A DNA stretch of 25,914 nucleotides from Cereibacter sphaeroides 2.4.1 (GCF_000012905.2 NC_009007.1:65018-90931); one strand, 5' to 3'. Numbered from the stretch's first letter, positions 7,734 to 25,327 are shown. Notes: generated by a model from the sequence alone, not told the origin. Numbers and translations are program-made.

Positions 7734-8555
7734 TTATTGGGCCGCCGCCGTGGAGGCGGAAAGCCGATCGAAGGCGGCCGTAAGACGGTCGGCCGCCATC
7801 ATGCCGGGCACCACTTCTCCATCCCGAAACACGAATGCCGGGGTGCCGGAAATCGAGAGCGCCTGGGCGAGGCGTCGGTTGCCGTCAATGATGGACGTGA
7901 TGTCGTCCTGCCGCCCCCGCGCCACGAGGGCCGGATAATCGTAGCCGGCCGCTCCGGCGAGGATCGAAAGCGCGGCCTCGTTGAGACCGCCCTTGTGCGA
8001 CAGGAGCGCGTTGTGAAAGCCAAGGTAGGCCTCGTCGCCGTGCTCCGCGCGGACAGCCAGAGCGAGCCTTGCAGCGGCTTCGGAGGTGGATCCGAGGATC
8101 GGAAACTCTTTCATCACCACCGCCACATCGTTCCGGCCGGACAGGGCTGCAGCGAGCTCCGGCAGCGCGCCTTTGCAGTAGCCGCACTGGTAATCGAAGA
8201 ACTCTACGGCGACGACCGGCGCGCTGGCATTGCCCTTGCGCGCATCGGCTCCTTGAAACAGAGCCGCCGCCTCGGCCTCGACCGCCGCGCGGGCGCCGGC
8301 GGTCTGCTTCTCCTTCTCCTGCCGCTCAAGCAGGGCGAAAACCTCGAGAACTACCTCGGGATTGCTGAGCAGGACGCTGCGGACCTGATCGGCGAACTCC
8401 GGGCCCGGCTCGGATTGCTTTGCCCCCTGCCCCGCAGCGGCAAGTAACGGCATCACCACGCTCCCCGCGGCCATAACGAGCACACCAGCCAGCGCCCCCG
8501 CAATTGATGCGCGCGTCAAAACGCCGCGTCGCTGCACCTTATCGTCACAACTCAT
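7734..8555 (-). CDS. DsbA-family thiol:disulfide oxidoreductase (periplasmic)
   Basis: It has a CxxC active site in the thioredoxin context FFDYQCGYCKGALPEL and a hydrophobic N-terminal signal or anchor. The start is set at 8555 (AAGGAG 6-7 nt upstream) rather than the track start at 8630. Confidence 0.85.
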   Translation of the reverse strand: MSCDDKVQRRGVLTRASIAGALAGVLVMAAGSVVMPLLAAAGQGAKQSEPGPEFADQVRSVLLSNPEVVLEVFALLERQEKEKQTAGARAAVEAEAAALFQGADARKGNASAPVVAVEFFDYQCGYCKGALPELAAALSGRNDVAVVMKEFPILGSTSEAAARLALAVRAEHGDEAYLGFHNALLSHKGGLNEAALSILAGAAGYDYPALVARGRQDDITSIIDGNRRLAQALSISGTPAFVFRDGEVVPGMMAADRLTAAFDRLSASTAAAQ

Positions 8556-8714
8556 AGCCACTCCTTGCAAACGAGATCGGCGGTGTCGTGCAACTGCGCT
8601 GAATGGGGATAACCATCTCGGCGTTGTCACGCACTAACCAATCCGTCTTTGCTCCACATGTGCAAACTCGTTATTGAATAGCGTTATGTTTCAGTTTCAG
8701 CAAAGGGTTTTGAG

Positions 8715-10997
8715 ATGTCGCACCTCCGCAAGGGCCAGCCGACACAGTTCGTCCGCGGCGGCCAGACCACGCAGCACTGGTGGCGCATGGCGGCGCAGGT
8801 GGTCCGCACCTCGCTCTTCGTCGCGCTGGCGGCCTTCACCCTCACCTACACGGCTCTCGTGCTTGCCAATTACGAGCTGCGCTACATGCGCGAGACCTTT
8901 GCGAGCTGGACCGCGCATTACAACGTCCGGCTGGGCCGGCCGGAGAAGATCATTTCTTACGTCGATCACCTCGACCGACGGCTCGAGCGGACGGCAGGAC
9001 AGATCGCGGCTGACCATCGGATGAACGCTCTTGCGGACGAGTATCGCCGCAATGCCTCGCTCTTCGCCTGGTATGCTCTCGTTCCGGCGGCCGCGGCGCT
9101 TCTGATCAGCACCGCCATTTTCGCCTGGGCCGGACAGCGGGTCGGGCAGAACGAACATGTGCGGGGAAGCCGCCTCATAGACCAGCGGGATCTCGCGCGC
9201 TGGTCCATGAGAAAGTGGAAGGCATACCAGAAGCGCTTCGGCCTCGGCCTGAAAAAGGGGCCACGCTACACAATCGCCGGCATCCCGTTCCCTCCGAACG
9301 CCGTGGAGGCGCAGACCGGGATCTTCGGAACGGTCGGGGTGGGCAAGACCAACGCCATCAAGGAGCTGCTGACCACCATCCGGGCACAGAACGGCCGAGC
9401 CATCATCTACGACCGCATGGGTGGCCTCGTCCGCGATTTCTACGATCCGGCCACCGACATTATCATCAATCCCTTCGACGCCCGATCACACATCTGGTCG
9501 CCGTTCGGCGAAGCCAGCACCCCGGAGGCTCTGGCGCAGATCGCCGAGGTCATGATCCCGCAGCGCCCCGGACAGAACGATCCTTTCTGGTCACAGACGG
9601 CGCGGCTGGTCTTCGAATATTCGGCGCGCTCACTCCTTCGCGCCAAGCGACCGACCAACGCAGACCTGCGCCGCGCGATCATGACGATCTCGGCCGAAGA
9701 GCTGGAGAAGCTGCTCGCAGGCACGCCGGGGGCTCATTTCTTCGGCAAGCACGTCGAGAAGACGTCGGCCTCGATCCGCGCAAACATGATTGCGGAGCTG
9801 CGGTTCCTCGAGTTTCTGCGTGACGACGGTGAGCTCTTTTCGGCGCGAGAGTGGGTCAAGTCGGAGCGACCCGGTTTCGTGTTTCTGACCGGCGATGCCG
9901 AACACTCGGCCGCGACCCGCAACATTATCTCCACCATCATCGAGGTATCGGCCAACGCGCTGATGACCTGCGAAGAGAGCCGCGATCCGAAGGTCTGGTT
10001 CTTCCTAGATGAGGTGCCGTCCCTCAACCGCCTGCCCTTCCTGCAATCGAAGCTGGCGGAGATCCGGCAGTTCGGGGGGGCTTTCGTGCTCGGCTACCAG
10101 GTCTTTGCGCAGCTGGAAGACATCTACGGAGAGAAAGGCGCGCAGGCCATCGCCGGCAACCTCAACAACCGCATCGTCTTCAACACGCCGGACGCGCGCA
10201 CGGCCAAGCTCTTTTCCGAAAGCCTCGGGTTCGAGGATGTGGTCGAACAACGGGAAAACCTGAGCTTCGGGGCGCACGAGTCTCGCGATGGCGTGGCCTT
10301 CATGAGCCAGCGCACGGAGCGGCCCATCGTCACCGCCTCTGAGATCCAGGCGCTGCCTCAGTTCGAGGCTCTGATCCGCTTTGCATATGACGCGCCAACT
10401 GCGCGCGTCCGGTTCGAGCCTGTCCAGGTGGAGCCGAAGGCCGAGAAGATCGTGCCCTATCAGGGTGGCGGCTTCGCTCTGGATGCCATGGATCCGCACA
10501 AGGCCCCTGCCCCGGCCCCGGCGGCAGATGAGGCGTCACTCGCCACGCGCTATGCCCCGGAGCTGCTTGGAAAGGTGCAGGAGGAACGGCGCGCACGGTT
10601 CGCGAGCTGGACCCCGGCGCAGCAGATCGCGGCCTTTGACGACTGGTTCGCAAAGGGCCTGCGACCGGACTTCGACGCTGCAGGCTTCTCCTTGCTGGCC
10701 CCTCTCGACGGCGTGCCGCCAGAAACGGCCTGGGACCACTATTACCGACAGCGCGTCCAGGGACACGATGAACCGACTTTCCGCATCACGCCCAACATGA
10801 TGCAGATGGTCACTAACCGCCCCCGCGCCCGGGAGGGTGCGGGTGCGGCGGTGGCCGAGGTGCCTGCCTATGCGGATCTTCGCCGCGCGGCCGAGGAAAA
10901 GATCATTCCCTTCCCGGGTCGCCACGCTGCGCCGCCCCCTGCCCGTCCAGCTGACCCTCTCACTGCGGGAATGGATGAGGAGGGCTCGCTGCTATGA
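8715..10997 (+). CDS. Type IV coupling protein (TraD/TrwB/VirD4-type)
   Basis: It has two N-terminal TM segments, Walker A GTVGVGKTN and Walker B VWFFLDEVPSL. Its stop overlaps the relaxase start as ATGA. Confidence 0.9.
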   Translation: MSHLRKGQPTQFVRGGQTTQHWWRMAAQVVRTSLFVALAAFTLTYTALVLANYELRYMRETFASWTAHYNVRLGRPEKIISYVDHLDRRLERTAGQIAADHRMNALADEYRRNASLFAWYALVPAAAALLISTAIFAWAGQRVGQNEHVRGSRLIDQRDLARWSMRKWKAYQKRFGLGLKKGPRYTIAGIPFPPNAVEAQTGIFGTVGVGKTNAIKELLTTIRAQNGRAIIYDRMGGLVRDFYDPATDIIINPFDARSHIWSPFGEASTPEALAQIAEVMIPQRPGQNDPFWSQTARLVFEYSARSLLRAKRPTNADLRRAIMTISAEELEKLLAGTPGAHFFGKHVEKTSASIRANMIAELRFLEFLRDDGELFSAREWVKSERPGFVFLTGDAEHSAATRNIISTIIEVSANALMTCEESRDPKVWFFLDEVPSLNRLPFLQSKLAEIRQFGGAFVLGYQVFAQLEDIYGEKGAQAIAGNLNNRIVFNTPDARTAKLFSESLGFEDVVEQRENLSFGAHESRDGVAFMSQRTERPIVTASEIQALPQFEALIRFAYDAPTARVRFEPVQVEPKAEKIVPYQGGGFALDAMDPHKAPAPAPAADEASLATRYAPELLGKVQEERRARFASWTPAQQIAAFDDWFAKGLRPDFDAAGFSLLAPLDGVPPETAWDHYYRQRVQGHDEPTFRITPNMMQMVTNRPRAREGAGAAVAEVPAYADLRRAAEEKIIPFPGRHAAPPPARPADPLTAGMDEEGSLL

Positions 10998-13900
10998 TGA
11001 GCGTGAGCAACGTCTCGGCCGGCGCCGCTGCCAGCGGATACTATCAGGCCGAAGGGTATTACGTCGCCGGAAGCCCTGAGGCAGAGGCGGCAGCTTCGTG
11101 GTTCGGCAGTGCGGCTGATGAGCTTGTCGCAATGGGTCAGGAAGAGTTTGCGGGGCGCGTGGACGACGCTGCGTTCTCGGCCATGCTCGACGGTCACGCT
11201 CCGCCGACCCAACGCGATGCCGAAGGCCATTGGAAGGAAGGTCAGACGCTCGGCCGCGTCGTGGACGGGGAGCGGCAGCACCGACCGGGGATCGACCTGA
11301 CCTTCTCCGCCTCCAAGTCGGTGTCGATCATCGGTCTGGTCGCTGGCGATGAGCGCGTGATCGCAGCCCATGACGAGGCGGTGAAGGCCGCCATGAGCTA
11401 CGTCGAAGAGAAGTTCGTCCGGACACGTCGGGAGGTGAACGGCGAGATCGTGGCGGTCCCCGGCAAGATGGTGGCCGGGCTTTTCCGCCATGATACGTCG
11501 CGGGCCCTCGATCCGCAGCTCCATACCCATGCCGTCATACAGAACATGGTCCTCGGCGAGGACGGCAAGTGGACCGCCCTCTCCAACGAGGAAATCTACC
11601 GCAACAAGATGCTGATCGGGGCGATCTACCGCAACGAGTTGGCGCAGAACCTCGAGCGGGCGGGATATGCCGTCGAGCGTGTCGGCCATGACGGCATCAC
11701 CGAGATCAAGGGCGTCCCGCGCGAGCTGATGGATGGCTTCTCGAAGCGCCGCAAGGAGATCGAGGCGGCCCTCGATGAGCGTGGGATCGAGAGGACGGCT
11801 GTAGATAGCGCATTGGCAGCCCTCGCCACCCGCAGGAACAAGCAGAAGGGCATCGACCGGGCAGAGCTGCGTGAAGCGTGGGAGAAGGAAGCGCAGTCCA
11901 TGGGCGTCTCCCTCGATCAGCTTCGCGAGCTCCGGCAGACAGCCACTCTGACGGCAGCCACGCGCCTGCCCGGCGTGACGCGAGACGGGATCGCTGCGCC
12001 CTCCCCTGCTGATCGCGCCGCGGCCGCCGTCGAGTTCGCGATTGCGCATGTGAGTGAACGCAATGCCGTCTACTCCGGCTCCGAGCTGGTCCGCGTGGCC
12101 CTGAGCCGAGCCAAGGATGTGGGGATCCGGCAGATCGAGGGCGCCATCGCGACCAAGGAAGAGACGGGCCGTCTGGTGCCGGTCCATGTCCATGCCTGGA
12201 ACGAGAAGCGCTCGCCCGATGCCATGACCCGCGGGGAGGGCTTCTCCGGGACGCTGAAGGCGATGGGCACCGCGCCGTATCAGAACGACCCTAGAAACCG
12301 CGACTCCTTCTTCGTGACCATCGAGACGCGGAACGGGGAGCAGACGGTCTGGGGTGCCGGCTTGCAGGCGGCGCTCGAACGGCAGGAAGCCAGTCCGGGC
12401 AGCCTTGTCCATCTGACGGTGCAGGGCCAGAAGCCCGTGACGGTGATCGGCGCCGATGGCAAACCGGTGTCCGCCCATCGCAATCTCTGGACGGCGGAAG
12501 TCATCGAACGCGCCTCGGAGCGGTCGGATCGCTCCAACGGCCCTCAGCCGCAGCGGGAGACGATCAGGCTCTATTCGGACGATGCCACCCTTGCCCTCGA
12601 GCGCATGGTGCTGGGCGAGTATCGGGCAGCCCGGCGTCAAGGCGGAGTGGAGTTGCCAGCTCGCCTGAGAGTCACTGGCGGGATCAAGATGAGCGGAGAA
12701 GCTCTTCTGCGTGACCGCCTTGACAAGACAACTCTGACGGAGGGCCAGAAGGAAGCGGTCGCACTCGGTCTCACAGGCAGAGGCCGGTTCGTCGGCGTGC
12801 AGGGGTATGCCGGCACGGGCAAAACGCACATGGTGGAAACCCTGCGCCGCTATGCCGAGCGGGCGGGCTTCACCGTGGAAGGCGCGGCACCGACGAACAA
12901 GGCCGCCGCAGAGCTCGCCTCGGCAGTGCCCGCGGCCGGCACCGTCGCCCGCTTCCTGCTCGCGGATGCTCCGGGCGACAAGAAGCGCTCCATCCTCGTG
13001 GTCGACGAGGCTGGGATGATCTCCACGCGCGACATGCACGCCCTGATGACCAAGGCAAACGAGCTCCGATACGCTCGGGTTATCCTCGTAGGTGACGTGA
13101 AGCAGCTCGACCCGGTGAGCGCGGGCTCGCCCTTCGCGCAGCTCCAGAAGGCGGGAATGCCGACCGCCATCATGGCCGACATTCAGCGCCAGAGAAACGA
13201 AGATGCCCGGAAAGCCGTGCTCCATGCCATCCGCGGCGAGGTCCGTGCTGCCTTCTCGCGGATCGAGGATCTTCGCACGCCAGAGAAGAACCAGAGCTTT
13301 ACCGGCGAGGTTGCCCGGGCGTGGCTCGGATTGCACAGCTCGGTGCGCGAGCGGACCGGGATTGTGGTTCTGACCAACCGCGTCCGGGGGGAAGTTAATG
13401 CCGCGATTCGCGACGAGTTGAAACGGGAACATCGGCTCGGCGCTCAGGATGTGACGGTCGCCAGTCTCACGCCGCTCTCGCTCACCCGCGCCGAAGCGCG
13501 CGAGGCGGCCAGCTACAAGGCTGGTGACGTGGTGATCTCGGTGCGCAGCGTGGAGGGGTTGGAGCGGGACAAACTCTACCGGGTTACATCCACCCTGCCC
13601 TATCAGAACAGCATCACCTTGCGTCCGGAGGGAGGCGGCGCCGAGGTCGCGCTGACACTCGGACATGGGTCGAAAGCTGCGGGATCGCTCGCCGCATTCG
13701 AGGTGGGCAAGCGCGAATTTGCGGCCGGCGATGAGGTCAAATTCGCGATCACCGACAAGGATTGCGGAGCGATTAACGGTGCGCGCGGCCGGATCACAAA
13801 GGTGACGGAAGCCCAGATCGACGTCACGCTGCACGGCGGGCGGAAGCTCTCCGTGCCCACGGATTCACTCGCCGCCCGTGGCCTAGACCATGCCTATGCG

Positions 13901-14329
13901 GCCACCGCACACGACTTTCAGGGCGCCACAGTGGACAGGATCATCGTGGGCATGACCCCCGATGAGCAGCTCACCAGCCAGAAGTCCTTCTACGTCAATA
14001 TCTCCCGCGCGCGGGACCATGTGACGCTTGTGACGACCGATCCCGGGAAGCTCGCTGATCGGATTCAGCGTGAGACCGGCGAACGTCCGGCCGCGCTCGA
14101 CGCCTACGCGCAGCGGCTCTCGGACGAGCGGAACGCGGCCGGAAAGGTGCCGCAGAATGAGCCCCCCTCCCCTGCCCGCGACCCTGACCGGGTGCCGCAA
14201 ATCCTGCGCGAGCAGGCGCAGAAACTGCGGCAGGCGGAGCCCCCGCAGGAGCGCACTGATCGGCAGGTGGAGCAATTCCTGGCGCAGTTCGAGGAGAAAC
14301 AGAAGGTGAAGGAAGGACCGATCCGGTGA
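10994..14329 (+). CDS. MOBF-family relaxase-helicase (TrwC/TraI-like)
   Basis: The N-terminal TrwC relaxase domain carries the histidine triad context HDTSRALDPQLHTHAVIQN. The central and C-terminal part is a RecD-like helicase (GYAGTGKT, ILVVDEAGM, VILVGDVKQL, AATAHDFQGATVD). Confidence 0.92.
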   Translation: MMSVSNVSAGAAASGYYQAEGYYVAGSPEAEAAASWFGSAADELVAMGQEEFAGRVDDAAFSAMLDGHAPPTQRDAEGHWKEGQTLGRVVDGERQHRPGIDLTFSASKSVSIIGLVAGDERVIAAHDEAVKAAMSYVEEKFVRTRREVNGEIVAVPGKMVAGLFRHDTSRALDPQLHTHAVIQNMVLGEDGKWTALSNEEIYRNKMLIGAIYRNELAQNLERAGYAVERVGHDGITEIKGVPRELMDGFSKRRKEIEAALDERGIERTAVDSALAALATRRNKQKGIDRAELREAWEKEAQSMGVSLDQLRELRQTATLTAATRLPGVTRDGIAAPSPADRAAAAVEFAIAHVSERNAVYSGSELVRVALSRAKDVGIRQIEGAIATKEETGRLVPVHVHAWNEKRSPDAMTRGEGFSGTLKAMGTAPYQNDPRNRDSFFVTIETRNGEQTVWGAGLQAALERQEASPGSLVHLTVQGQKPVTVIGADGKPVSAHRNLWTAEVIERASERSDRSNGPQPQRETIRLYSDDATLALERMVLGEYRAARRQGGVELPARLRVTGGIKMSGEALLRDRLDKTTLTEGQKEAVALGLTGRGRFVGVQGYAGTGKTHMVETLRRYAERAGFTVEGAAPTNKAAAELASAVPAAGTVARFLLADAPGDKKRSILVVDEAGMISTRDMHALMTKANELRYARVILVGDVKQLDPVSAGSPFAQLQKAGMPTAIMADIQRQRNEDARKAVLHAIRGEVRAAFSRIEDLRTPEKNQSFTGEVARAWLGLHSSVRERTGIVVLTNRVRGEVNAAIRDELKREHRLGAQDVTVASLTPLSLTRAEAREAASYKAGDVVISVRSVEGLERDKLYRVTSTLPYQNSITLRPEGGGAEVALTLGHGSKAAGSLAAFEVGKREFAAGDEVKFAITDKDCGAINGARGRITKVTEAQIDVTLHGGRKLSVPTDSLAARGLDHAYAATAHDFQGATVDRIIVGMTPDEQLTSQKSFYVNISRARDHVTLVTTDPGKLADRIQRETGERPAALDAYAQRLSDERNAAGKVPQNEPPSPARDPDRVPQILREQAQKLRQAEPPQERTDRQVEQFLAQFEEKQKVKEGPIR

Positions 14330-14958: not shown

Positions 14959-14992
14959 GGCCGATCCGAGCGCTCAGAAGGCCGAAAACTAC

Positions 14993-15032
14993 CGTGGCAC
15001 GTCGTGCCACGCGCGTGGCACACTGTGCCACG
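14993..15032. promoter_or_regulatory. Two adjacent perfect 19-bp palindromes (CGTGGCAC-n3-GTGCCACG) separated by 2 bp
   Basis: Read directly: cgtggcac gtc gtgccacg / cg / cgtggcac act gtgccacg. They start 35 bp after the stop of the relaxase operon. They are candidate protein-binding sites, oriT inverted repeats or an operator. Confidence 0.5.
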
Positions 15033-15070
15033 GCCCCGAAAAACAACGTAAATACAGCGCGTTGGGAGCC

Positions 15071-15093
15071 GGGGGCAAATTACGCCCCCTTTT
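15071..15093 (+). terminator. Rho-independent terminator of the coupling protein-relaxase operon
   Basis: GGGGGC-aaattac-GCCCCC stem-loop followed by TTTT. Confidence 0.6.
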
Positions 15094-15130
15094 AAGACGA
15101 AAAGCCTTTATTTATAAAGGCTTGAAGGCA

Positions 15131-16060: not shown

Positions 16061-16516
16061 GCGACCGCACCGCCGCTTCGCCGCACCGCCGCACATCCGC
16101 ATGGCCGCCTCACCGCACCGCCGCACGTCCGCATGGCCGCCTCACCGCACCGCCGCACGTCCGCATGTCCGCATCACCGCACCGCCGCACGTCCGTATGG
16201 CCGCCTCACCGCACCGCCGTATGTCCGCATGGCCGCCTCACCGCACCGCCGCATGTCCGCATGGCCGCCTCACCGCACCGCCGCACATCCGCATGGCCGC
16301 CTCACCGCACCGCCGCACATCCGCATGGCCGCCTCACCGCACCGCCGCAGGTCCGCATGGCCGCCTCACCGCACCGCCGCAGGTCCGCATGGCCGCCTCA
16401 CCGCACCGCCGCACGTCCGCATGGCCGCTTAATCGCATGTCCGCACCGACGCATGTCCGCTTCGCCGCTTTGCCGCATGTCCGCATCTACGCCTTGACGC
16501 ATGTCCGCATCGCCGC
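16061..16516. repeat. 57 consecutive in-phase octamers NNNNCCGC with a 32-bp higher-order unit (11 copies, 16099-16450); candidate partition centromere and par operator
   Basis: GCATGGCCGC (variants GCATGTCCGC at 16163 and GTATGGCCGC at 16195) recurs at 16099, 16131, ... 16419 with exact 32-bp spacing. The octamer register is unbroken for 456 bp. The array ends 38 bp before the parA start. Confidence 0.85.
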
Positions 16517-17975: not shown

Positions 17976-18165
17976 GCCCCTCGGCGAGAGCGGGGGGGAG
18001 GGGTCAAGGGGCCGCGCGGAGCCGCCCGGAGCCACGCGCAGCAAAGCGAGCATGGCGAGGACGGCGAGCACGGCGGGCGCTTGCGCCCCTTGCCCTTGAC
18101 CCCGATGGGGGCGGAGCCCCCCTGACGGCGCGCGTCTGCGCGCCATGCTCCTCACCACGGCGAAG

Positions 18166-19621
18166 CCACGCTGGCCGCCCACAATCTCGCCTGCGATCCC
18201 GGAGGGGTGACGGCGCGGCAGGTGCCGACGTGCCGGAAGGGCCGAAGGCCCCTAGGCTCGTCGGTGCCTGACGCGGCGGCGCGCCGGAGGGGAGGGCTCG
18301 TGCCACGCCGGCCGCCCGCAGATCTCGCCCGCAATCCCGGAGGGGTGACGGCGCGGCAGGTGCCGACGTGCCGGAAGGGCCGAAGGCCCCTAGGCTCGTC
18401 GGTGCCTGACGGGACGGCGCGCCGGAGGGGAGGTCTCGAGGCACGCCGGCCGCCCGCAGATCTCGGCCGCGATCCCGGAGGGGTGACGGCGCGGCAGGTG
18501 CCGACGTGCCGGGAGGGCCGAAGGCCCCTAGGCTCGTCGGTGCCTGACGCGGCGGCGCGCCGGAGGGGAGGTCTCGAGGCACGCCGGCCGCCCGCAGATC
18601 TCGCCCGCGATCCCGGAGGGGTGACGGCGCGGCAGGTGCCGACGTGCCGGGAGGGCCGAAGGCCCCTAGGCTCGTCGGTGCCTGACGCGGCGGCGCGCCG
18701 GAGGGGAGGTCTCGAGGCACGCCGGCCGCCCGCAGATCTCGCCCGCAATCCCGGAGGGGTGACGGCGCGGCAGGTGCCGACGTGCCGGAAGGGCCGAAGG
18801 CCCCTAGGCTCGTCGGTGCCTGACGGGACGGCGCGCCGGAGGGGAGGGCTCGTGCCACGCCGGCCGCCCGCAGATCTCGGCCGCGATCCCGGAGGGGTGA
18901 CGGCGCGGCAGGTGCCGACGTGCCGGGAGGGCCGAAGGCCCCTAGGCTCGTCGGTGCCTGACGCGGCGGCGCGCCGGAGGGGAGGGCTCGTGCCACGCCG
19001 GCCGCCCGCAGATCTCGCCCGCGATCCCGGAGGGGTGACGGCGCGGCAGGTGCCGACGTGCCGGAAGGGCCGAAGGCCCCTAGGCTCGTCGGTGCCTGAC
19101 GGGACGGCGCGCCGGAGGGGAGGGCTCGTGCCACGCCGGCCGCCCGCAGATCTCGGCCGCGATCCCGGAGGGGTGACGGCGCGGCAGGTGCCGACGTGCC
19201 GGGAGGGCCGAAGGCCCCTAGGCTCGTCGGTGCCTGACGCGGCGGCGCGCCGGAGGGGAGGTCTCGAGGCACGCCGGCCGCCCGCAGATCTCGGCCGCAA
19301 TCCCGGAGGGGTGACGGCGCGGCAGGTGCCGACGTGCCGGAAGGGCCGAAGGCCCCTAGGCTCGTCGGTGCCTGACGGGACGGCGCGCCGGAGGGGAGGG
19401 CTCGTGCCACGCCGGCCGCCCGCAGATCTCGGCCGCGATCCCGGAGGGGTGACGGCGCGGCAGGTGCCGACGTGCCGGGAGGGCCGAAGGCCCCTAGGCT
19501 CGTCGGTGCCTGACGCGGCGGCGCGCCGGAGGGGAGGGCTCGTGCCACGCCGGCCGCCCGCAGATCTCGGCCGCGATCCCGAAGGGGTGACGGCGCGGCA
19601 GGTGCCGACGTGCCGGAAGGC
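18166..19621. repeat. Tandem array of a 138-bp unit, about 10.5 copies, non-coding
   Basis: The phase marker CCCGGAGGGG occurs at 18198, 18336, 18474 ... 19440, with a variant CCCGAAGGGG at 19578. Spacing is exactly 138 bp with no indels. A degenerate remnant extends back to about 18119. Confidence 0.95.
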
Positions 19622-19711
19622 CCCCGCGGATCTCCGCTCGGCGTCCGGCTCTGGTCGTGCTTCCGCTTCCGGGATTTGGTGGGCGGGGCCTTTGCCCCGC
19701 CCGGTGGTTCC

Positions 19712-20575
19712 TCAGCCTGCCTTCAGCTCGGCCATGCGCTCGGTGAGCATCCAGAGCGCGCGGTTGAGGCCGCGGGACTGGTCGATGCCGGCCACCTCGC
19801 GGACGGTCTGGCGGCGGAAATGGCCGCTTTCGGTCCGGGTGCGGCCGCGCATCCCTCCGCGCAGGGTGTTCTCCTGCACCACGTTGAAAGCGGTCCACAG
19901 GTCGGTGGCGCGGTCGGTCGAGCGCCGCGGCCGCAGGAGCTCGGCCGGCGTGATCGGCGCTTCCTTGCCCTCGGCGGTGCCGGGGAAGCGAAGGCCGTGC
20001 GCGGCTTCGGCCAGGATCTCGCGCTCCCGGTCCTGCAGCTGGATAGCCTTGAACCGGTCCACCTGCTCGGTCACGCGGGGGGCCTCCTCAAGCACGCGAT
20101 AGGCGCCCTCGATGACTTCGCCAATGGCATTGCCGCTATGGCGGACCTTCACCTCGTCGAAGGTCTCGCCGCACATGAGGCCGTTGGCGCAGACAAACCG
20201 AAAGAACCCCGGGATCATCTGATAGGCGCTCGTGCCGTCATTCGCGTTGACCAGCACGATCTCGAACGCCTCGCCCTCGGCATTGACGATGCCGCGGTGA
20301 CGCAGGCGCAGCATGTGCTTCGTAAACTCGGCCTTGCCCTCGACTCGGGTGCGGGCCTGCTGAGCAAAGAACGGTTCGAATCCTTCCGCGCGCAGGCCAT
20401 CCAGCACGGTGACGGTGGGGACAGGAGCGAACCGGGCGCTGCGGCTCTCGTGAGCCTCGGTCGCAAAGATCGAGGGAACGCGCGCCATCAGCTCGTCATT
20501 CGTCAGCGGCTGATCGCCCCGGCTGTAGGCCGCGCCGCCGTTGCTCATCCCGCGCATATAGAAATGATAGCTCAT
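19712..20575 (-). CDS. DUF932-domain protein (common in plasmid and ICE transfer or leading regions)
   Basis: PLTNDELMARVPSIFATEAHESRSARFAPVPTVTVLDGLRAEGFEPFFAQQARTR....FTKHMLRLRH matches the DUF932 N-terminal signature. AAGGAGA lies 5-6 nt upstream of the ATG. Confidence 0.9.
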   Translation of the reverse strand: MSYHFYMRGMSNGGAAYSRGDQPLTNDELMARVPSIFATEAHESRSARFAPVPTVTVLDGLRAEGFEPFFAQQARTRVEGKAEFTKHMLRLRHRGIVNAEGEAFEIVLVNANDGTSAYQMIPGFFRFVCANGLMCGETFDEVKVRHSGNAIGEVIEGAYRVLEEAPRVTEQVDRFKAIQLQDREREILAEAAHGLRFPGTAEGKEAPITPAELLRPRRSTDRATDLWTAFNVVQENTLRGGMRGRTRTESGHFRRQTVREVAGIDQSRGLNRALWMLTERMAELKAG

Positions 20576-20894
20576 CGTCGTCTCCTTCGGTGCGCAACGG
20601 TGGGGTCTTTGCCCTCATCCGCCAGTGGGGCGCGGCCTCTCCGATCTGACCTCTGGAAAGCACCGCGTGCTTTCCGGAGGACAGAGCGGGGAGGGCGAAG
20701 CCCTGCCTGCGGCCACGGGGCCGGATGAGACAGGGGCCGGTGACGGGGAAAATTGGGGGGCACCCGCGCGGGCTCGCCCGCGTGGGGGGAGCCGATTTTC
20801 TCCGGCGCCGGTGACGCGCCCCAGGCGCGGCATCACAACCCCTGTTCAGCCGGAACCGGGGATGTCAGGCGGATCCAGCACCTGCAAAAAGTGT

Positions 20895-20947
20895 CGCGCC
20901 GCTCCCGCGGCGCGTCCTTGCCAACTCGATCCGCGCCTTCGCGGATC
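20895..20947. repeat. Diverged partial third copy of the two-hairpin 5' part of the 202-bp element
   Basis: CGCGCCGC-tccc-GCGGCGCG is followed 13 nt later by GATCCGCG-cctt-CGCGGATC TCCA. The second hairpin arms and the TCCA are identical to those in the copies at 22243 and 23321. Confidence 0.5.
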
Positions 20948-21643
20948 TCCATCGACCTCACCGCATCGAGGAGAGCTGCAGCCCGATCGGCAAGGCCCGC
21001 GCTCTCAGCTCGCCCGCGCGAGGATCGTCACCCGAATGGGCGGAGACAGGGCGTCCTATCGGACCATGCACGGCTGCGACATGACCGGCTCGGAGAGACG
21101 GGCAGGGCGCCCGCCGCGCAGGGACGAGAGGGCGTCATGGCTCCGGTCCCGGCCGCTTGCGGACGGGACTAGAGCCGTGCCCCGGCTACGCCGGGGTCGC
21201 GCCCAGACATCCCCTACATGCGCAAGGAAATGCCTCCTGCCTAATCATCACTACATGCGCCTATCCGAATACATTAAAGTGTCCGCCCCTGAGAAAGAGG
21301 TAAGGAGCCGGAGTATCAAGTCCCATCTACTAACCGTCTGATACCAAATGACTAATTCAAGGCAGCCACCAAGTATAGCGTAAATGCCAACGGACTGAGG
21401 ATTGTCGGTCAGCCGGGTCAAGCAAACAATCTTCGTTCGCAGGCGCCAACTGGTGGATAAATCTTGGGCCTCGTGTTTGACCGTAAAGTTTCCGAGGCTG
21501 TATATCTGGCACGTCCACTAAAAGGACGCGGCCCGCTCTGCCCTGGCCGGCAGGCGGGCCGCTCGATCTCGACGCGGGCCAAGATCAGGTCACGAGTTAT
21601 GTCTGACACAGGCCCGCACCTTCGTAAACTGTTAGGAGGTGTC

Positions 21644-21802
21644 ATGAAGGCATACCAAGCGAAGCGGGCTCGGATCCGCTTTAACAATCCGATGACGGGC
21701 TGGGCGATAGACGCCGAGGGACACGCAGCCATCTTTGGCGTTATCGTCATCATGACGGGGCCGCCGCTCATCGCCATGGCGTTGAAGCTCCTCCACCCGT
21801 AG
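21644..21802 (+). CDS. Possible 52-aa membrane peptide (MKAYQAKRARIRFNNPMTGWAIDAEGHAAIFGVIVIMTGPPLIAMALKLLHP)
   Basis: AGGAGG lies 5 nt upstream of the ATG. It has one hydrophobic helix and is followed by a 10-bp-stem hairpin. The upstream part of track ORF 21464..21802 has no support. Confidence 0.35.
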   Translation: MKAYQAKRARIRFNNPMTGWAIDAEGHAAIFGVIVIMTGPPLIAMALKLLHP

Positions 21803-21820
21803 CAAAGGCACAGCGCAATC

Positions 21821-21846
21821 GTCAGCCCGGCTCCCGCCGGGCTGAC
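21821..21846. terminator. GC-rich hairpin between convergent genes (GTCAGCCCGG-ctcccg-CCGGGCTGAC), no T-tract
   Basis: A perfect 10-bp stem, read directly, located between the 21644..21802 (+) and 21872..22162 (-) ORFs. Confidence 0.4.
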
Positions 21847-21871
21847 CCTGCGACAAACAGCGGGCATTGGA

Positions 21872-22162
21872 TCAGCGCGCTGAAAGGAACCACAGCCGCT
21901 CGGCCGGGATGAACTCGGCAACATCCGTCCAGCCGAAGGCACGCTCCGATATAAAGTCGGCCATGGCCAATAGGACGTGCGCCTCAACCTGCGGCCGGCT
22001 CGAGCAGGGTGCCCAAAATTGCCCGGCGAGCACACGACCGTCTGGCAGAACGTGAGCTCGAGCGCGGATTGGCGGCTCGAGGATGAGCACCTCGTGCTCG
22101 CTTTCACTCACACGGTCCACGATGACATTCTGCTCCATGGCGGGACGATCTCCCATGGGCAT
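21872..22162 (-). CDS. Hypothetical protein (the start may be the third Met at 22138)
   Basis: An ORF with GC-rich third codon positions. GGAGA lies upstream of the Met at 22138. No family was recognised. Confidence 0.45.
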   Translation of the reverse strand: MPMGDRPAMEQNVIVDRVSESEHEVLILEPPIRARAHVLPDGRVLAGQFWAPCSSRPQVEAHVLLAMADFISERAFGWTDVAEFIPAERLWFLSAR

Positions 22163-22210
22163 TTAGATGACGTTACGGCGGGCCATATCGCCGGCGGCAC
22201 GACCCTTTTA

Positions 22211-22412
22211 CAGCGCCGCGCGGAGCGCGGCCGGAGTATCTTGATCCGCGTCCTCGCGGATCTCCACTGTCGGCGCCCGTCTTATCCAGCCCGCCATGGC
22301 CTTCGGCCGTGGCGGGCCCTGCAGGTGCGGAGCTGAACGCAGCAATCACGCGGCGCAGAGAAGCGGAGCACCTGTGGGTAAGACGGGCGCCGCGGCCGAG
22401 AGCTCTCGGCCG
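22211..22412. repeat. 202-bp structured repeat, copy A
   Basis: It aligns without gaps to 23289-23490 (constant offset of 1078) with about 10 mismatches. It contains at least four hairpins and a 17-bp long-range stem. Confidence 0.9.
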
Positions 22413-22654
22413 AGCGGCGGGCAGAAGGAACTTATCTGCCTGCCCGTCCGCGCGCTCGTGTGGATCTCACGTCGACGCGGGATGCGGCCGGAGGCCGCGA
22501 TCGCTCGCGGTCGATACGGGTCCGGCCTGTGCGTCATCCGGCCAGGCCATAGCGGCAATCCGAAGCGCGCGCGCTGAGAAAACGGGACGGCCCGAGCGTG
22601 ACCCATGCTCATTCTCGGCATGCAACAGGACGGCTTGATTGCCAAGAAGGGCGT

Positions 22655-23203
22655 TTAGACTAGTTGAAAGCCGAAGGCCCTCCTCGCGTCAGGGTCTCCC
22701 CAGCGCGAGTCGAGGTAGTTATTTAGCAGTCGATAAAGTAGCTCGTGAACAAGGTGGATGTCTGTGGAGGCCGATCCGTCAAAGCGGCAGATCACGGTTT
22801 CCCCGCTGATCCTCACTTCTACGTTTCCAGAAGCACGCACGCACTCGACCTTAGCTTGCACAATCTGCTTAGGAAATGCGTTCGGTGCCGGCTCCAGAAC
22901 AATGCCCAGACCGAACTCAAACGTGCCATCGCTGCAGCTGACGACGGCATCGTTGAAGGCGTCTTCGTCACTGATAGTTCCATCGGATCTCACACGGTAG
23001 AGCGGCACATACCGGTGATACGTTGTGGTGCCATCCCTTTTAGCCTCGTAATACTTCGGCATACCGAGAAAATTCTGCAAACCGTTTGCCACGAGCGCTG
23101 CGAACCGGTTGTTCTCCCGCACAAACTCACGCGTGGCCTTCTCCCGTTCGCAGAATTTTTGACGGATAATCTCGTATTTCGTCCCGCTCTGCTCGTCACT
23201 CAT
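22655..23203 (-). CDS. Hypothetical 182-aa protein, lower GC than its surroundings
   Basis: A clean ORF whose codon usage is visibly richer in A/T-ending codons than the backbone genes. It is bracketed by the two 202-bp repeats. No family was recognised. Confidence 0.6.
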   Translation of the reverse strand: MSDEQSGTKYEIIRQKFCEREKATREFVRENNRFAALVANGLQNFLGMPKYYEAKRDGTTTYHRYVPLYRVRSDGTISDEDAFNDAVVSCSDGTFEFGLGIVLEPAPNAFPKQIVQAKVECVRASGNVEVRISGETVICRFDGSASTDIHLVHELLYRLLNNYLDSRWGDPDARRAFGFQLV

Positions 23204-23288
23204 CGTCCGTAGCCCTTGTTATCCCGGTTTACGTTGGTCAGTTTACTGTTCCGCTTGGGCACTGTCACCGTTCGCACCCGCCCGATTG

Positions 23289-23490
23289 CAGCGCCGCGCG
23301 GAGCGCGGCCGGAGTATCTTGATCCGCGTCTTCGCGGATCTCCACTGTCGGCACCCGTCTTATCCAGCCCGCCATGGCCTTCGGCCGTGGTGGGCCCTGC
23401 AGGTGCGGAGCTGAACGCAGCAATCACGCGGCGCAGAGAAGCGGAGCACCCGTGGGTAAGACGGGCACCTTGGCAGAGGGCTCTCTGCCG
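23289..23490. repeat. 202-bp structured repeat, copy B
   Basis: See copy A. This copy is in direct orientation. Confidence 0.9.
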
Positions 23491-23543: not shown

Positions 23544-24761
23544 TCATCCCACACGGCGCTGGAGCGCTATCAGTGATCCATGAAGGTTCAGGCTTCCGTT
23601 TCGAGCTCGTTCCGTCATGGCCCGCAGCATCCCGCCCGGGCTCCAGACGGGGTTCACCGGGCGATAGCGGTTGGCATCGAGAACTAGCACGCACAGCGCT
23701 GCTGGGAGATCGCCCATTGCATCGGCCGCATCGTCCCAGGCGCTGGCGTTGACACCAAGTGCTGGCAGGATCGCGATCGCCGCCTGAATGAAATCGTGCG
23801 CCGTGAGGGTGCTACCGCTACGTCGGCCGGCATCCAGATACATCTGCATGTCGGGAGACGCTGCCTCATAAAGCTGCGCCGGGGTGAAGGTTTCCAAATA
23901 TCCGGGCTTGAACCCTCGGTCGGCCAAGCCACGCTTTTTTTCGTAGTACGATGCCGTGCCGAACGGCGCGGCATCTGTCTTAATGCAGTCCGCCCGCTTG
24001 CGGGCGGTCCGCTCAATGGCGGAGGAGCCGCTACAGACAGGATTTTCTTTAGTTGTATCTTGTATATGAGGCCGGAAGGAGTTTTCCGGCACGCCGGAAG
24101 AATCTTGCTGCATTTCGAGGAGCTGGAGCGCCTCGCGCGTAGCGTTATCCACACATCGAAGGAGGGTGCGAAGCTCGCTCTCGCCCAAGCCGTCGTAGCG
24201 CCGAGGCATGGTCTCAAGGATCTCGGCCGGGCCGGGAGCCACTTTGTCCAGAGCGGCAAGACGACTGAGGGTCTGGCTCAGGATCCGGCGCGACGCCGAC
24301 ACGCGACGCTTCAGGATCTGACGCTCACGCTCTTCCGCCTCCAGCTGCTCCACAATGCGTAGCAAATGCGGGAACGATTCGATCAAGGGAGCAAACGAGA
24401 TGCCCTGGATAAGCTCGCCGCCGGCAAAGCGACCGCGACTGCCGTCAGCGGCAAGGTTTCGCTTTAGAAGGCCAAGCCGCTCGAGGCGCGCCTCCTGATA
24501 GCGCAGCGCGCGTGGTGTCACTCCGAGGCGCGCCGCCACTTGGGCCTGTTGCATGAAGCATACCGCGTCCCGCGTCTCATCCCGCCAGTCGCTGGGCCTC
24601 GTCGCCTGGATCATGACCAACAACGCACGCAGGCACGCGCTCGAGAGGCCCAAAGGCGCGCTGCACGCAGTGACTAGCCGCTCCACATCGCTGCGCTGAA
24701 ATCGACCGGGCAGGGTCGGGTAGGATTCTTCGGGTTCGGCCCGAAGCTGGTTCGTTAACAT
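23544..24761 (-). CDS. repC: RepC-family plasmid replication initiator, without adjacent repA/repB
   Basis: Blocks aligned by eye to RepC of repABC plasmids: VCFMQQAQVAARLGVTPRALRYQEARLERLGLL, QGISFAPL, RPHIQDTTKENP (compare ERHIQNSNPES), and LGVNASAWDDAADAMG...SPGGMLRAMTERARNGSLNL. The start is set at 24761 (AGGAAAGAGC before the ATG), giving 405 aa. Confidence 0.88.
   Translation of the reverse strand: MLTNQLRAEPEESYPTLPGRFQRSDVERLVTACSAPLGLSSACLRALLVMIQATRPSDWRDETRDAVCFMQQAQVAARLGVTPRALRYQEARLERLGLLKRNLAADGSRGRFAGGELIQGISFAPLIESFPHLLRIVEQLEAEERERQILKRRVSASRRILSQTLSRLAALDKVAPGPAEILETMPRRYDGLGESELRTLLRCVDNATREALQLLEMQQDSSGVPENSFRPHIQDTTKENPVCSGSSAIERTARKRADCIKTDAAPFGTASYYEKKRGLADRGFKPGYLETFTPAQLYEAASPDMQMYLDAGRRSGSTLTAHDFIQAAIAILPALGVNASAWDDAADAMGDLPAALCVLVLDANRYRPVNPVWSPGGMLRAMTERARNGSLNLHGSLIALQRRVG
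24041..24153. other. Candidate oriV inside repC: an AT-rich stretch plus a perfect DnaA-box consensus
   Basis: GATTTTCTTTAGTTGTATCTTGTATATG (24041-24068) is by far the most AT-rich stretch of the gene. TTATCCACA lies at 24145-24153. In characterised repABC replicons the origin lies within repC. Confidence 0.4.
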
Positions 24762-24958: not shown

Positions 24959-25327
24959 CTGTAGTGTCGCGTGTCCTTCCGAATCTGGCCGCCACCATGG
25001 CGTAGATTGCTGTATACGCCGATCTTGCCCCGAAATGTAGCAAAGACCACAAGCACCTGCGCCTAGCAAGGCGTGGGTGTCTTCATAATGAGCTGCGCAC
25101 GTCGGTTGTCCGCTCAGGGGGCGCTGCCCCCCCGCGATGCCGATGGCCGAGCGCAAGCGTCGGCGGGCCGGTATCCCCACCTTCCTCCGCCTGCGGCTCC
25201 GTGCAGGCGGGTGATCCCCCTCCGGCCCGCCGAGCCAGGCATCGCACCCCCCGCGTTCGCCACGCGGCAGACCGACATGGGCGCGTCCCGCGACCATGCC
25301 GATCAGCACGGATTTTGGAGAACCGTC

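Follow-up and report, generated by a model that had tools for sequence, protein, structure and literature searches.

Strand-biased structured elements in the putative leading region of a Cereibacter sphaeroides conjugative plasmid

Introduction

Single-strand promoters of the Frpo/ssi type have been described in the F plasmid (Frpo1 and Frpo2) and in ColIb-P9 (Masai & Arai 1997; Bates et al. 1999; Couturier et al. 2023, PMC9849209). Frpo1 and Frpo2 are 92% identical as published, and ygeB, which adjoins the F oriT, is under Frpo1 control (PMC9849209). F also carries ssp2, a single-strand promoter that in addition stalls complementary-strand synthesis (bioRxiv 10.64898/2026.01.09.698686). The STAXI motif is a conserved structured element that occurs close to ssb, antirestriction and integrase genes in mobile elements, and its authors discussed a possible action as single-stranded DNA (Weinberg et al. 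2010, PMC2864571). In pLS20, conAn antitermination involves regulatory cassettes repeated ahead of establishment genes (PMC6294495). YubP/YgeB (median position 1 from oriT, strand 1; Samuel et al. 2024, Suppl. Table 1), DUF736, ArdC and DUF4942 are leading-region families on strand 1, and a family with YedK/SRAP members has strand -1 (Samuel et al. 2024).

Here we describe a window of 25,914 nucleotides from Cereibacter sphaeroides 2.4.1 (NC_009007.1:65018-90931), which belongs to a MOBF/MPF_F plasmid. An original prediction held that each minus-strand gene in a block of this window is preceded by a copy of one hairpin element, and that these copies may act as single-strand promoters during transfer. 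Conserved, strongly structured modules do make up the intergenic DNA of the block, and the evidence for such a role attaches to a different element, X1, which abuts the start codon of a DUF932 gene.

Results

Gene content and the transferred strand

The protein encoded by the DUF932 gene (Table 1) is 45% identical to F YgeB (E 4e-89), and YgeB is itself a member of PF06067 (DUF932). The original prediction had noted DUF932 genes as frequent in leading regions, and the gene is supported as a typical member of such regions by the homology with YgeB, the oriT-adjacent, Frpo1-controlled position of ygeB and the median position of its family.

Table 1 Features of the window. Positions are counted from its first nucleotide; a point in the strand column denotes no strand.
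Feature	Position	Strand	Remarks
TrwB-type coupling protein (8715-10997) and TrwC/MobF relaxase (10994-14329)	8715-14329	+	
Candidate oriT or operator	14959-15130	.	Four GTGGCAC repeats forming two hairpins (14994-15031); AT-rich palindromes
Tandem array	18165-19620	+	138 bp x 10.6; 96% matches; GC ~78%; + strand more structured
DUF932 gene	19712-20575	-	Pfam PF06067, E 3.8e-45
X1	20576-20890	+	~315 nt; abuts DUF932 start codon; proximal part of repeat X
X2	20891-21207	+	Distal half of X; contains the originally predicted partial copy
Variable spacer	21208-21530	.	AT-rich (GC 0.50), unstructured, non-homologous between sister plasmids
Sigma70-like promoter CTGACA-16-TAAACT (21603-21630), RBS and 52-aa membrane-type small ORF (21644-21802)	21603-21802	+	Promoter conserved
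96-aa ORF	21872-22162	-	No family match; 88 aa from 22138 in RefSeq
Copy A (module Y)	22203-22412	+	Four hairpins, including palindrome 22243-22262 and a ~120-nt long hairpin
182-aa ORF	22655-23203	-	Rare family: 8 homologue clusters, 55-59% identity
Sigma70-like promoter GTGACA-17-TAAACT	23240-23268	-	Predicted, double-strand type; between copy B and 182-aa ORF
Copy B	23281-23490	+	Partial duplicate of Y; palindrome 23321-23340; folds more weakly than copy A
Solo repC	23544-24761	-	Orientation as establishment genes
Z	25114-25321	+	Structured module, ~92-95% identical to sister-plasmid copies; ends at start codon of + strand small genes

In F, nic lies on the strand that is template for ygeB and is followed by orf169, ygeB/ygeA and Frpo1, in this order (cf. 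PMC9849209), and the layout of the window would mirror this if oriT lay at the candidate site at about 14959-15130. This segment has mobF and a 210-aa ORF upstream and a 278-aa ORF with a weak endolysin-like match downstream, and its core, GCGTGGCACACYGTGSCACGGCC, is kept at the same position in Leisingera. The GTGGCAC repeats of the segment recur in the 138-bp array, several units of which contain GTGCCAC within the unit consensus TCGTGCCACGCC, and the repeats could be partition operators rather than oriT. AT-rich DNA ahead of the coupling-protein gene (8555-8714) and ahead of the MPF_F operon (23700-24130 of locus L001) provides other oriT candidates; an oriT at either place, with the usual polarity, would make the minus strand the transferred strand. 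The opposition of strands between the catalogued leading-region and YedK/SRAP families is seen in the window and in its relatives as well. This orientation, the F-like content and order of the genes and the candidate oriT at 14959-15130 favour the + strand, which is most likely the one transferred, and we infer that the block belongs to the leading (establishment) region of a conjugative plasmid of the S-factor-like MOBF/MPF_F kind.

Folding across the region showed the same preference. Structured elements between 14 and 26 kb favour the + strand, and 17 of the 21 strongly structured 200-nt windows in this interval were more structured on it. The Rfam 15 covariance models matched nothing at E <= 1 in the whole window and gave chance-level matches only on an array of X1 copies from Shinella.

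X1 is a member of a widespread, strand-biased family

The DUF932 start codon is abutted by repeat X (~630 bp, 20572-21207), which consists of X1 and X2 and recurs at 96-98% identity ahead of other genes in sister plasmids. The site at 20895-20947, within X2, had been read as a diverged partial copy of the hairpin element; the element profile matched 46 nt only (E 0.018, 11 bits), and the site is not a decayed copy and belongs to the separate repeat X.

The + strand of X1, which is the template strand of DUF932, is predicted to fold into a 75-nt hairpin, a GCGAAGC mini-hairpin and a ~170-nt branched long hairpin (-121.3 kcal/mol, z -8.75). Folding of the element beside DUF932 favoured the + strand by 28.6 kcal/mol (strand-difference z 7.9), and X2 favoured it as well (z 3.3). 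As a positive control, the F elements Frpo1 and Frpo2, which are ~460-nt repeats, 89% identical by local BLAST and ending ~20 nt before start codons, were biased in the same direction as X1 and more weakly (z 2.3 and 1.1); Frpo1 itself folded with a z of -6.6.

X1 belongs to a family of 26 copies at 12 plasmid loci (one to four copies per locus) in eight genera: Cereibacter, Paracoccus, Leisingera, Ruegeria, Dinoroseobacter, Roseobacter, Shinella and Sinorhizobium. All 26 copies are on the strand of the neighbouring establishment-type genes, and nearly all of them, lying upstream of a gene, end within ~50 nt of a start codon. The genes that follow encode DUF932, DUF736, DUF3768, ArdC-type and ParB/Spo0J proteins (the last of ~620 aa), or are small ORFs. 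In Roseobacter pROLI83, the X1 array is located upstream of the relaxase gene and points away, an arrangement that does not fit a simple geometry.

The template strand outfolded the sense strand in each of 17 representative copies, by 9.6-29.5 kcal/mol, and this strand difference exceeded that of composition-matched shuffles (z of the difference 0.9-7.5). Folding z scores were -4 to -9.5 for the template strand and 0 to -4.4 for the sense strand, and the predicted structures contained 118 G.T pairs on the template strand compared to 33 on the sense strand. Compensatory changes were present in 14 of the 37 pairs of the consensus structure. Two conserved hairpins have GNA or GNRA loops on the + strand, as in GCGAAGC, and loops of this type are stable DNA mini-hairpin loops.

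X1 and copies A and B yielded no conserved -35/-10 elements; the best candidates scored 8/12 and were not kept between clades, and no site in X or Y reached 9/12 in a box scan. This absence is uninformative, because the same scanner also misses the genuine Frpo1 and Frpo2. Of the elements in the block, X1 is the best candidate to act as a single-strand promoter or primer.

Copies A and B are structured but restricted to Cereibacter

The two copies at the centre of the original prediction are genuine: they form a 210-nt direct repeat, are 94% identical and, as single-stranded DNA, fold far beyond shuffled sequences. Copy A with its flanks (22195-22420) reached -83.2 kcal/mol on the + strand (z -7.0 against shuffles) and -79.8 kcal/mol on the minus strand (z -6.2); copy A alone gave z scores of -10.4 (+) and -7.4 (minus), and copy B of -6.0 and -4.6. 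The predicted advantage of the + strand, which is large at the DUF932-side element, was marginal here (3-7 kcal/mol; difference z 1.2 and 2.4).

It is also true, within the window, that each of the three sites has a minus-strand ORF behind it in gene sense, at ~350 nt from DUF932 (the site in X2), 41 nt from the 96-aa ORF and 78 nt from the 182-aa ORF. This link with the genes is not conserved, however. The copy-A module is on the + strand, with a small ORF on one side and SRAP-VapBC on the other, in pORIO2/3 of C. azotoformans and in the part of the same record that is plasmid A. Homology of module Y with sister plasmids reaches 22575, and the copies were found in Cereibacter only, at syntenic plasmid positions. 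Copy B is not upheld as promoter of the 182-aa gene, which has its own predicted sigma70-like promoter. A MITE or other small mobile repeat was rejected as the identity of the copies, which have no terminal inverted repeats (CAGCGCC... / ...CTCGGCCG) or flanking duplication and occupy syntenic sites only.

Copies A and B might have no promoter role at all. Y would then be the intergenic or leader DNA of a + strand unit (small ORF, Y, SRAP-VapBC) from which SRAP has been replaced here, copy B would be a recombination remnant from the joining of a low-GC 182-aa cassette with repC, and the position of both copies upstream of minus-strand ORFs would be incidental. Consistent with this scenario, Y ends no more than ~35 nt from the SRAP start at three loci (L002, L003 and L016), after the conserved small ORF and its promoter, and between Y and Z, where plasmid A has SRAP-VapBC, this plasmid has the 182-aa ORF, copy B and repC. 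The 182-aa ORF sits in a cassette (22576-23280) that is flanked by copy B and has a GC content of 0.55, compared to about 0.70 in the flanking copies; copy B spans just 205-210 nt and has lost pairs of the long hairpin, and the sister copy in plasmid a lacks most of the 96-aa ORF, sharing just its first ~70 nt. In the opposite direction, copy A ranks with the most structured 200-nt stretches in the scan of 12 kb (z -9.3), the last hairpin shows one compensatory C-G to A-T change between copies A and B, and the module of GC hairpin and palindrome described below is present in every Cereibacter copy of X, which argues for function. We consider the scenario as a whole rather doubtful. Copies A and B are more likely to be accessory structures or protein-binding sites than promoters of the 96-aa and 182-aa genes, for which they are weak candidates.

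A shared palindrome and possible double-strand regulation

All that X and copies A and B have in common is a module of ~55 nt composed of a GC hairpin, a palindrome and TCCA. In X2, the GC hairpin (20895-20914) is terminator-like, with a T-run on the minus strand, and is followed by the palindrome (20928-20947). The exact 20-bp palindrome, GATCCGCG-N4-CGCGGATC, occurs at 20928, 22243 and 23321, always with the orientation unchanged and TCCA after it. When up to 3 mismatches were permitted, the search returned five matches (two of them 3-mismatch sites elsewhere) against 0.95 expected, a number reached in 0 of 100 shuffles. In copies A and B, the palindrome is bracketed on the minus strand by TGGAGA-N20-GATACT.

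The RP4 leader operon and the R388 regulators are operator networks with zygotic induction on double-stranded DNA. By comparison with these, the modules could be ordinary double-strand cassettes, in which a dimeric repressor or activator encoded by the plasmid uses the palindrome as its operator, X1 is a long structured 5' leader RNA, and early expression arises because no repressor is present when the DNA has become double-stranded. The three exact sites in one orientation are what an operator would look like, and their placement in a 20-bp spacer between the two hexamers in copies A and B is, as read from the sequence, a MerR-like geometry; MerR-family genes abut X2-like DNA in sister plasmids, including one that abuts X in pORIO3. 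However, no MerR gene is annotated in the window, and the putative -35/-10 hexamers are poor in X2 and not kept in the sister copies, which have TCGAGA and GACATT in their place. Similarly, X1 reaches the RBS, as a leader RNA would, and the 182-aa gene has a promoter of the sigma70-like type, but the sense strand of X1 folds markedly worse and the excess of G.T pairs is on the antisense strand. The hairpin and T-run immediately before X1 also leave no room for a recognisable promoter. We regard double-strand regulation as an unlikely explanation of the block.

It is highly improbable that X1 is the source of a FinP- or Sok-like cis-antisense RNA, transcribed from the + strand, that represses the establishment genes in plasmid carriers and is absent in fresh transconjugants: the structure and wobble pairs of X1 are on the strand antisense to the genes, G.U-type wobbles on the + strand would be equally compatible, and F-like leading regions carry antisense-controlled loci (hok, whose antisense control is described in the literature, is annotated in that of F), but the gene-proximal end of X1 showed no promoter-like site on the + strand, the distal end, where the hairpin T-run is on the minus strand, showed no + strand terminator, and homology ends at the start codons of unrelated genes, so that a promoter covering the RBS would fall in non-conserved coding DNA.

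Discussion

The original prediction of single-strand promoters is partly supported once it is moved from copies A and B, with their Cereibacter-only distribution and inconsistent link to minus-strand genes, to X1. At a probability of about 45%, we propose that the block is a leading region, that the + strand is transferred, and that X1 works like Frpo of F. An oriT situated between the relaxase operon and DUF932 (candidate 14959-15130) would be the entry point of the + strand, which would serve as template for DUF932, the 96-aa ORF, the 182-aa ORF and repC. Hairpins of X1 in the incoming strand would provide a double-stranded entry site for RNA polymerase, and the downstream gene would be transcribed ahead of complementary-strand synthesis, which the X1 transcript may also prime.

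More tentatively, X1 may represent an undescribed class of single-strand-active leading-region element that is widespread among conjugative plasmids of Alphaproteobacteria (Rhodobacterales and Rhizobiales, among them plasmids of Agrobacterium, Sinorhizobium and Shinella) and does the job of Frpo without sequence similarity to it or recognisable sigma70 boxes. Such a class would imply a different recruitment of RNA polymerase or primase to the incoming T-strand.

Among the described systems, STAXI differs from X1 in being a tandem pseudoknot of Enterobacteriales with UUCG loops that favour RNA, and its Rfam model is unmatched in the window and in the Shinella X1 array. RP4, R388 and pLS20 resemble the block in having repeated regulatory cassettes ahead of establishment genes, and the 20-bp palindrome with its three sites is operator-like; those systems act on double-stranded DNA or sense RNA, whereas X1 is structured on the antisense strand. 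Neither X, Y and Z nor the X1 profile showed similarity to the F leading region by blastn (word size 7) or nhmmer, with all E >= 0.05. X1 further differs from Frpo in being GC-rich, with no recognisable conserved -35/-10, and in having two hairpin domains and a mini-hairpin in place of one hairpin of ~330 nt; its hosts are Alphaproteobacteria. In F, ssp2 is a second, distinct class of stem-loop within the one leading region, which suggests a possible role for copies A and B as very stable hairpins placed among leading genes. Several copies in one orientation, each upstream of a leading operon, are a trait of Frpo that copies A and B share in part. Like Frpo, the X1 family is made up of repeats a few hundred nucleotides long that share one orientation and stop shortly ahead of start codons of leading-region genes, and copies of one plasmid closely resemble each other; the + strand of X1 has a very stable long stem-loop on the template strand, and copy A is strongly folded too; and the gene that follows Frpo1 in F, ygeB, encodes a DUF932 homologue of the gene that follows X1 in the window.

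Plasmid layout

The window sequence is also present in NZ_CP015289.1 and its relatives (100% match), and a 43.5-kb version of the plasmid exists as well. The plasmid is of the MOBF/MPF_F type, and its features are arranged as follows.

Features of the window and their positions
Feature	Position	Strand	Remark
TrwB-type coupling protein	8715-10997	+	
TrwC/MobF relaxase	10994-14329	+	
210-aa ORF, then intergenic DNA with many inverted repeats, then 278-aa ORF	3' of mobF		
Candidate oriT	14959-15130		intergenic, downstream of mobF and a small ORF; two adjacent hairpins at 14994-15031
32-bp tandem repeat	16065-16486		13 copies, 90% identity
VirC1/ParA-like gene, then 186-aa ORF		+	
138-bp tandem array (10.6 copies)	18165-19620		between 186-aa ORF and DUF932 gene; 18046-19725 including degenerate ends
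DUF932 gene	19712-20575	-	
Repeat X	20572-21207		630 bp
X1	20576-20890		gene-proximal half of X
X2	20891-21207		distal half of X
Promoter of conserved small ORF	21603-21630		
96-aa ORF, 182-aa ORF	between DUF932 and repC	-	
Copy A of module Y	22203-22412	+	
Low-GC cassette	22576-23280		carries 182-aa gene
Copy B of module Y	23281-23490	+	
Solo repC	23544-24761	-	
Module Z	25114-25321		
F-type mating-pair operon	begins just beyond right end of window	+	

Homology of the 278-aa ORF to orf169/SLT was rejected: no match came from BLASTP, Pfam or PDB, and its sole match was a PHROG endolysin (4e-12). The 5' part of the VirC1/ParA-like ORF is overlapped by the 32-bp repeat, which has 8-nt subunits (CCGCANNN) and a strong negative GC skew and resembles an array of iterons or operators. 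Since its unit length of 32 bp is not divisible by 3, the real start of parA is probably downstream of the repeat. Solo repC genes in the same orientation occur inside establishment-gene arrays of Agrobacterium, Paracoccus and Cereibacter plasmids (L147 3960-5240; L143 2493-3749; this window), often with an adjacent thermonuclease gene. The 152-kb "plasmid a" record of NZ_CP015289.1 (L016, L017, L001, L015) holds the coupling-protein/MobF module twice in near-identical form, along with two F-type tra operons, a single repABC and two solo repC genes. It resembles a cointegrate of two 2.4.1 plasmids or their fusion during assembly.

Repeat X and the X1 family

A single-strand promoter role had originally been proposed as possible for hairpin copies upstream of the DUF932, 96-aa and 182-aa genes. 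The repeats are real and the biology is of the right kind for this region, but the role was given to an element that does not fit it. X1, directly before the DUF932 gene, is the best candidate for a promoter or primer active on single-stranded DNA, with promoter activity and the identity of the T-strand (the strand transferred in conjugation) both putative.

Repeat X is 96-98% identical to the DNA that directly precedes other genes on the minus strand of sister plasmids. In C. azotoformans pORIO2/3 these are ParB-N-terminal and DUF3768/DUF4942 genes; in the plasmid-A part of NZ_CP015289.1 they are a DUF3768 gene and a small ORF. Its homology is limited by the start codon on one side and by a sharp edge at 21207 on the other, past which lies an AT-rich spacer without homology between the plasmids. 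Across many alphaproteobacterial plasmids, X1 was conserved at 70-80% in intergenic DNA. When the retrieved loci were searched with a profile, 26 copies were found in 12 loci (1-4 per locus) from Cereibacter, Paracoccus, Leisingera, Ruegeria, Dinoroseobacter, Roseobacter, Shinella and Sinorhizobium. All 26 copies are oriented with the gene strand, and nearly all end no more than about 50 nt from the start of an establishment-type gene. The downstream genes comprise DUF932, DUF736, DUF3768, an ArdC-like metallopeptidase, a ParB/Spo0J protein of ~620 aa and small ORFs, often in arrays with ssb, methylases and toxin-antitoxin pairs.

Helices in the X1 alignment were preserved despite sequence change (for example, AACAGGGG/CCCCTGT versus TCAAGGGG/CCCCTTGA), one hairpin had a different sequence in each clade, and 14 of the 37 consensus pairs were retained via double changes (RNAalifold). 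X1 is a member of an undescribed, widespread alphaproteobacterial family: Rfam searches of the window and of the Shinella array gave no family of this type, and full-text literature searches on these topics yielded no description of it. A metagenome scan with a degenerate X1 pattern, which was too loose, gave 120 loci, none of which fitted the X1 profile.

X2-like DNA (87.6% identical) occurs without X1 beside MerR-family genes on a non-mobilizable 124-kb Cereibacter plasmid (L148 12001-12242), where the distal X edge overlaps the 3' end of a MerR-family CDS; a MerR-family gene also lies at the distal edge of X in pORIO3 (L003 13204-13479). Module Z, the third of the conserved structured repeats, keeps ~92-95% identity from plasmid to plasmid (also L016 18547-18763 and L002 9818-10024); it ends at the start codon of differing plus-strand small genes and carries a TCCGCCTG motif resembling one in X1.

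Strand bias of folding

The strand antisense to the gene, which is the plus strand in the window, folded better in all 17 representative X1 copies, by 9.6-29.5 kcal/mol with DNA parameters and by 13-36 kcal/mol with RNA parameters. Against dinucleotide shuffles of ten copies, with both strands folded, the strand difference was in excess at z 0.9-7.5, with the template strand at z -4 to -9.5 and the sense strand at z 0 to -4.4. The predicted structures contained 118 G.T pairs on the template strand versus 33 on the sense strand. The plus-strand fold of X1 comprises a 75-nt hairpin, a GCGAAGC mini-hairpin and a branched hairpin of ~170 nt, and the Shinella copy folds alike. On pairs common to both alifold structures, G.U and A.C counts were neutral (32 versus 36), owing to poor MAFFT alignment between clades, and single-sequence folding with shuffles was adopted in place of alifold pair counts. 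A sliding scan of 14-26 kb found that 17 of 21 strongly structured windows favoured the plus strand.

Hairpin copies A and B

Copies A and B of module Y, a 210-nt hairpin element, proved to be genuine repeats (94% identical) that fold well beyond shuffles on both strands; coding and spacer controls in the window showed no structure. The plus-strand preference was weak in these copies (strand difference z 1.2 for A and 2.4 for B) compared with X1 (z 7.9) and X2 (z 3.3). All three sites originally named carry an exact palindrome, GATCCGCG-N4-CGCGGATC, followed by TCCA, but the third, upstream of the DUF932 gene, is no decayed copy of Y, as the element profile aligned over only 46 nt there (E 0.018). 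It shares with A and B a ~55-nt module made up of two hairpins (a GC hairpin and the palindrome), which at the third site lies within the distal half of the separate repeat X. A scan of the genome collection for the palindrome plus TCCA gave only chance matches in coding DNA, and a profile search found no X1-like element upstream of the 96-aa ORF, the 182-aa ORF or repC.

Module Y is confined to Cereibacter plasmids. Its copies in pORIO2/3 and plasmid A are on the plus strand, between a conserved small ORF, which has its own promoter, and SRAP-VapBC, and end ~35 nt short of the SRAP start; in the window the 182-aa ORF, copy B and repC occupy the SRAP-VapBC place. The 182-aa gene, which encodes a member of a rare family, has a sigma70-like promoter (GTGACA-17-TAAACT) between its start and copy B and lies in a low-GC cassette (GC 0.55 versus about 0.70). 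The long hairpin of copy B has lost pairs, and its last hairpin is maintained through one compensatory change. The start region of the 96-aa ORF is common to plasmid A, where the greater part of the ORF is absent; this ORF showed no similarity to YgeA and was rejected as its homologue. The palindrome sits in a 20-bp spacer between weak minus-strand hexamers, a MerR-like geometry, and these hexamers are not constant in sister copies. A MITE reading fails, as the element has no terminal repeats. Copies A and B make better sense as accessory modules (structured or protein-binding) or, in part, as products of recombination. As direct repeats of 205-210 nt they bracket the cassette, which could be deleted by homologous recombination between them, and Frpo1 and Frpo2, the single-strand promoters of the F plasmid, flank flm in much the same way.

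Putative leading region, oriT and T-strand

Several lines converge on the block as a probable leading region with the plus strand as putative T-strand. YubP/YgeB/PF06067 is a leading-region family on strand 1 at median position 1 (Samuel et al. 2024, PMC11541004, Suppl. Table 1). The Rhizobiales DUF736 family (Riorf102, Tiorf76, y4eB; strand 1, position 8), ArdC and DUF4942 (both strand 1) are also leading-region families, and the family including YedK/SRAP members is on strand -1 (PMC11541004); SRAP here is on the opposite strand to DUF932-type genes.

In that study, the leading side of oriT is the one facing away from the relaxase (PMC11541004). A plausible candidate oriT downstream of mobF contains four GTGGCAC repeats as two adjacent hairpins, followed by AT-rich palindromes, one of them perfect (AAGCCTTTATTTATAAAGGCTT); a terminator-like hairpin is also present. 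In a MOBF plasmid of Leisingera (L144 960-1010) the core of the candidate is conserved in the corresponding position. RefSeq annotates a CDS through this region. With oriT here and the relaxase entering last, the plus strand would be the T-strand and DUF932 the first gene templated. These repeats may instead be partition operators, because several units of the 138-bp array also carry GTGCCAC, as part of the unit consensus TCGTGCCACGCC. Alternative oriT sites are the AT-rich DNA upstream of the coupling-protein gene and that upstream of the MPF operon, either of which would, with the usual polarity, make the minus strand the T-strand. A further caveat on geometry is that the array of Roseobacter litoralis pROLI83 is directed away from the relaxase gene.

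The 138-bp array (96% matches, GC ~78%) is without annotated CDS and more structured on the plus strand; it may serve the VirC1/ParA-like protein as a centromere or overdrive-like array. pROLI83 has a centromere-like stretch of more than 15 GCAGTG/ACAGTG repeats between its ParA and relaxase operons (L020 5600-5920).

Comparison with the F plasmid

To our knowledge, single-strand promoters have been proven experimentally only in the enterobacterial F and IncI plasmids; elsewhere they have been inferred from similarity or from -35/-10 boxes. If our reading of X1 is true, it would extend the mechanism to alphaproteobacterial plasmids, including relatives of symbiosis and Agrobacterium plasmids, before establishment and anti-defence genes. 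X1 would then be a searchable marker of leading regions and of T-strand polarity where oriT is unknown, and would flag downstream orphan genes as early-expressed establishment candidates. It would also offer a defined ~315-nt substrate for biochemistry.

No sequence similarity was found between the window elements and the F leading region, so X1 is at best like Frpo in action and no member by homology. No sigma70-like site of at least 9/12 was found in X or Y on either strand, and the scanner finds none in the genuine Frpo1/2 either; the best X1 box candidates (GACA-N16/17-(T)GAAAT of the Rhodobacterales copies, for example) are not kept in Rhizobiaceae. As a positive control, Frpo1 and Frpo2 of the F leading region were folded on both strands. 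They form a 464-nt repeat, 89% identical, ending about 20 nt before ygeA and ssb, and showed the same template-over-sense bias as X1, but weaker (z 2.3 and 1.1). F YgeB belongs to the DUF932 proteins and shares 45% identity with the window protein along its entire length (E 4e-89), and ygeA and ygeB are controlled by Frpo1 (PMC9849209). The order in F is nic, orf169, ygeB/ygeA, Frpo1, with the nic sequence on the template strand of ygeB. The F leading region also has a ParB/Spo0J protein of ~650 aa, ssb and antirestriction genes, the same gene set as the alphaproteobacterial arrays.
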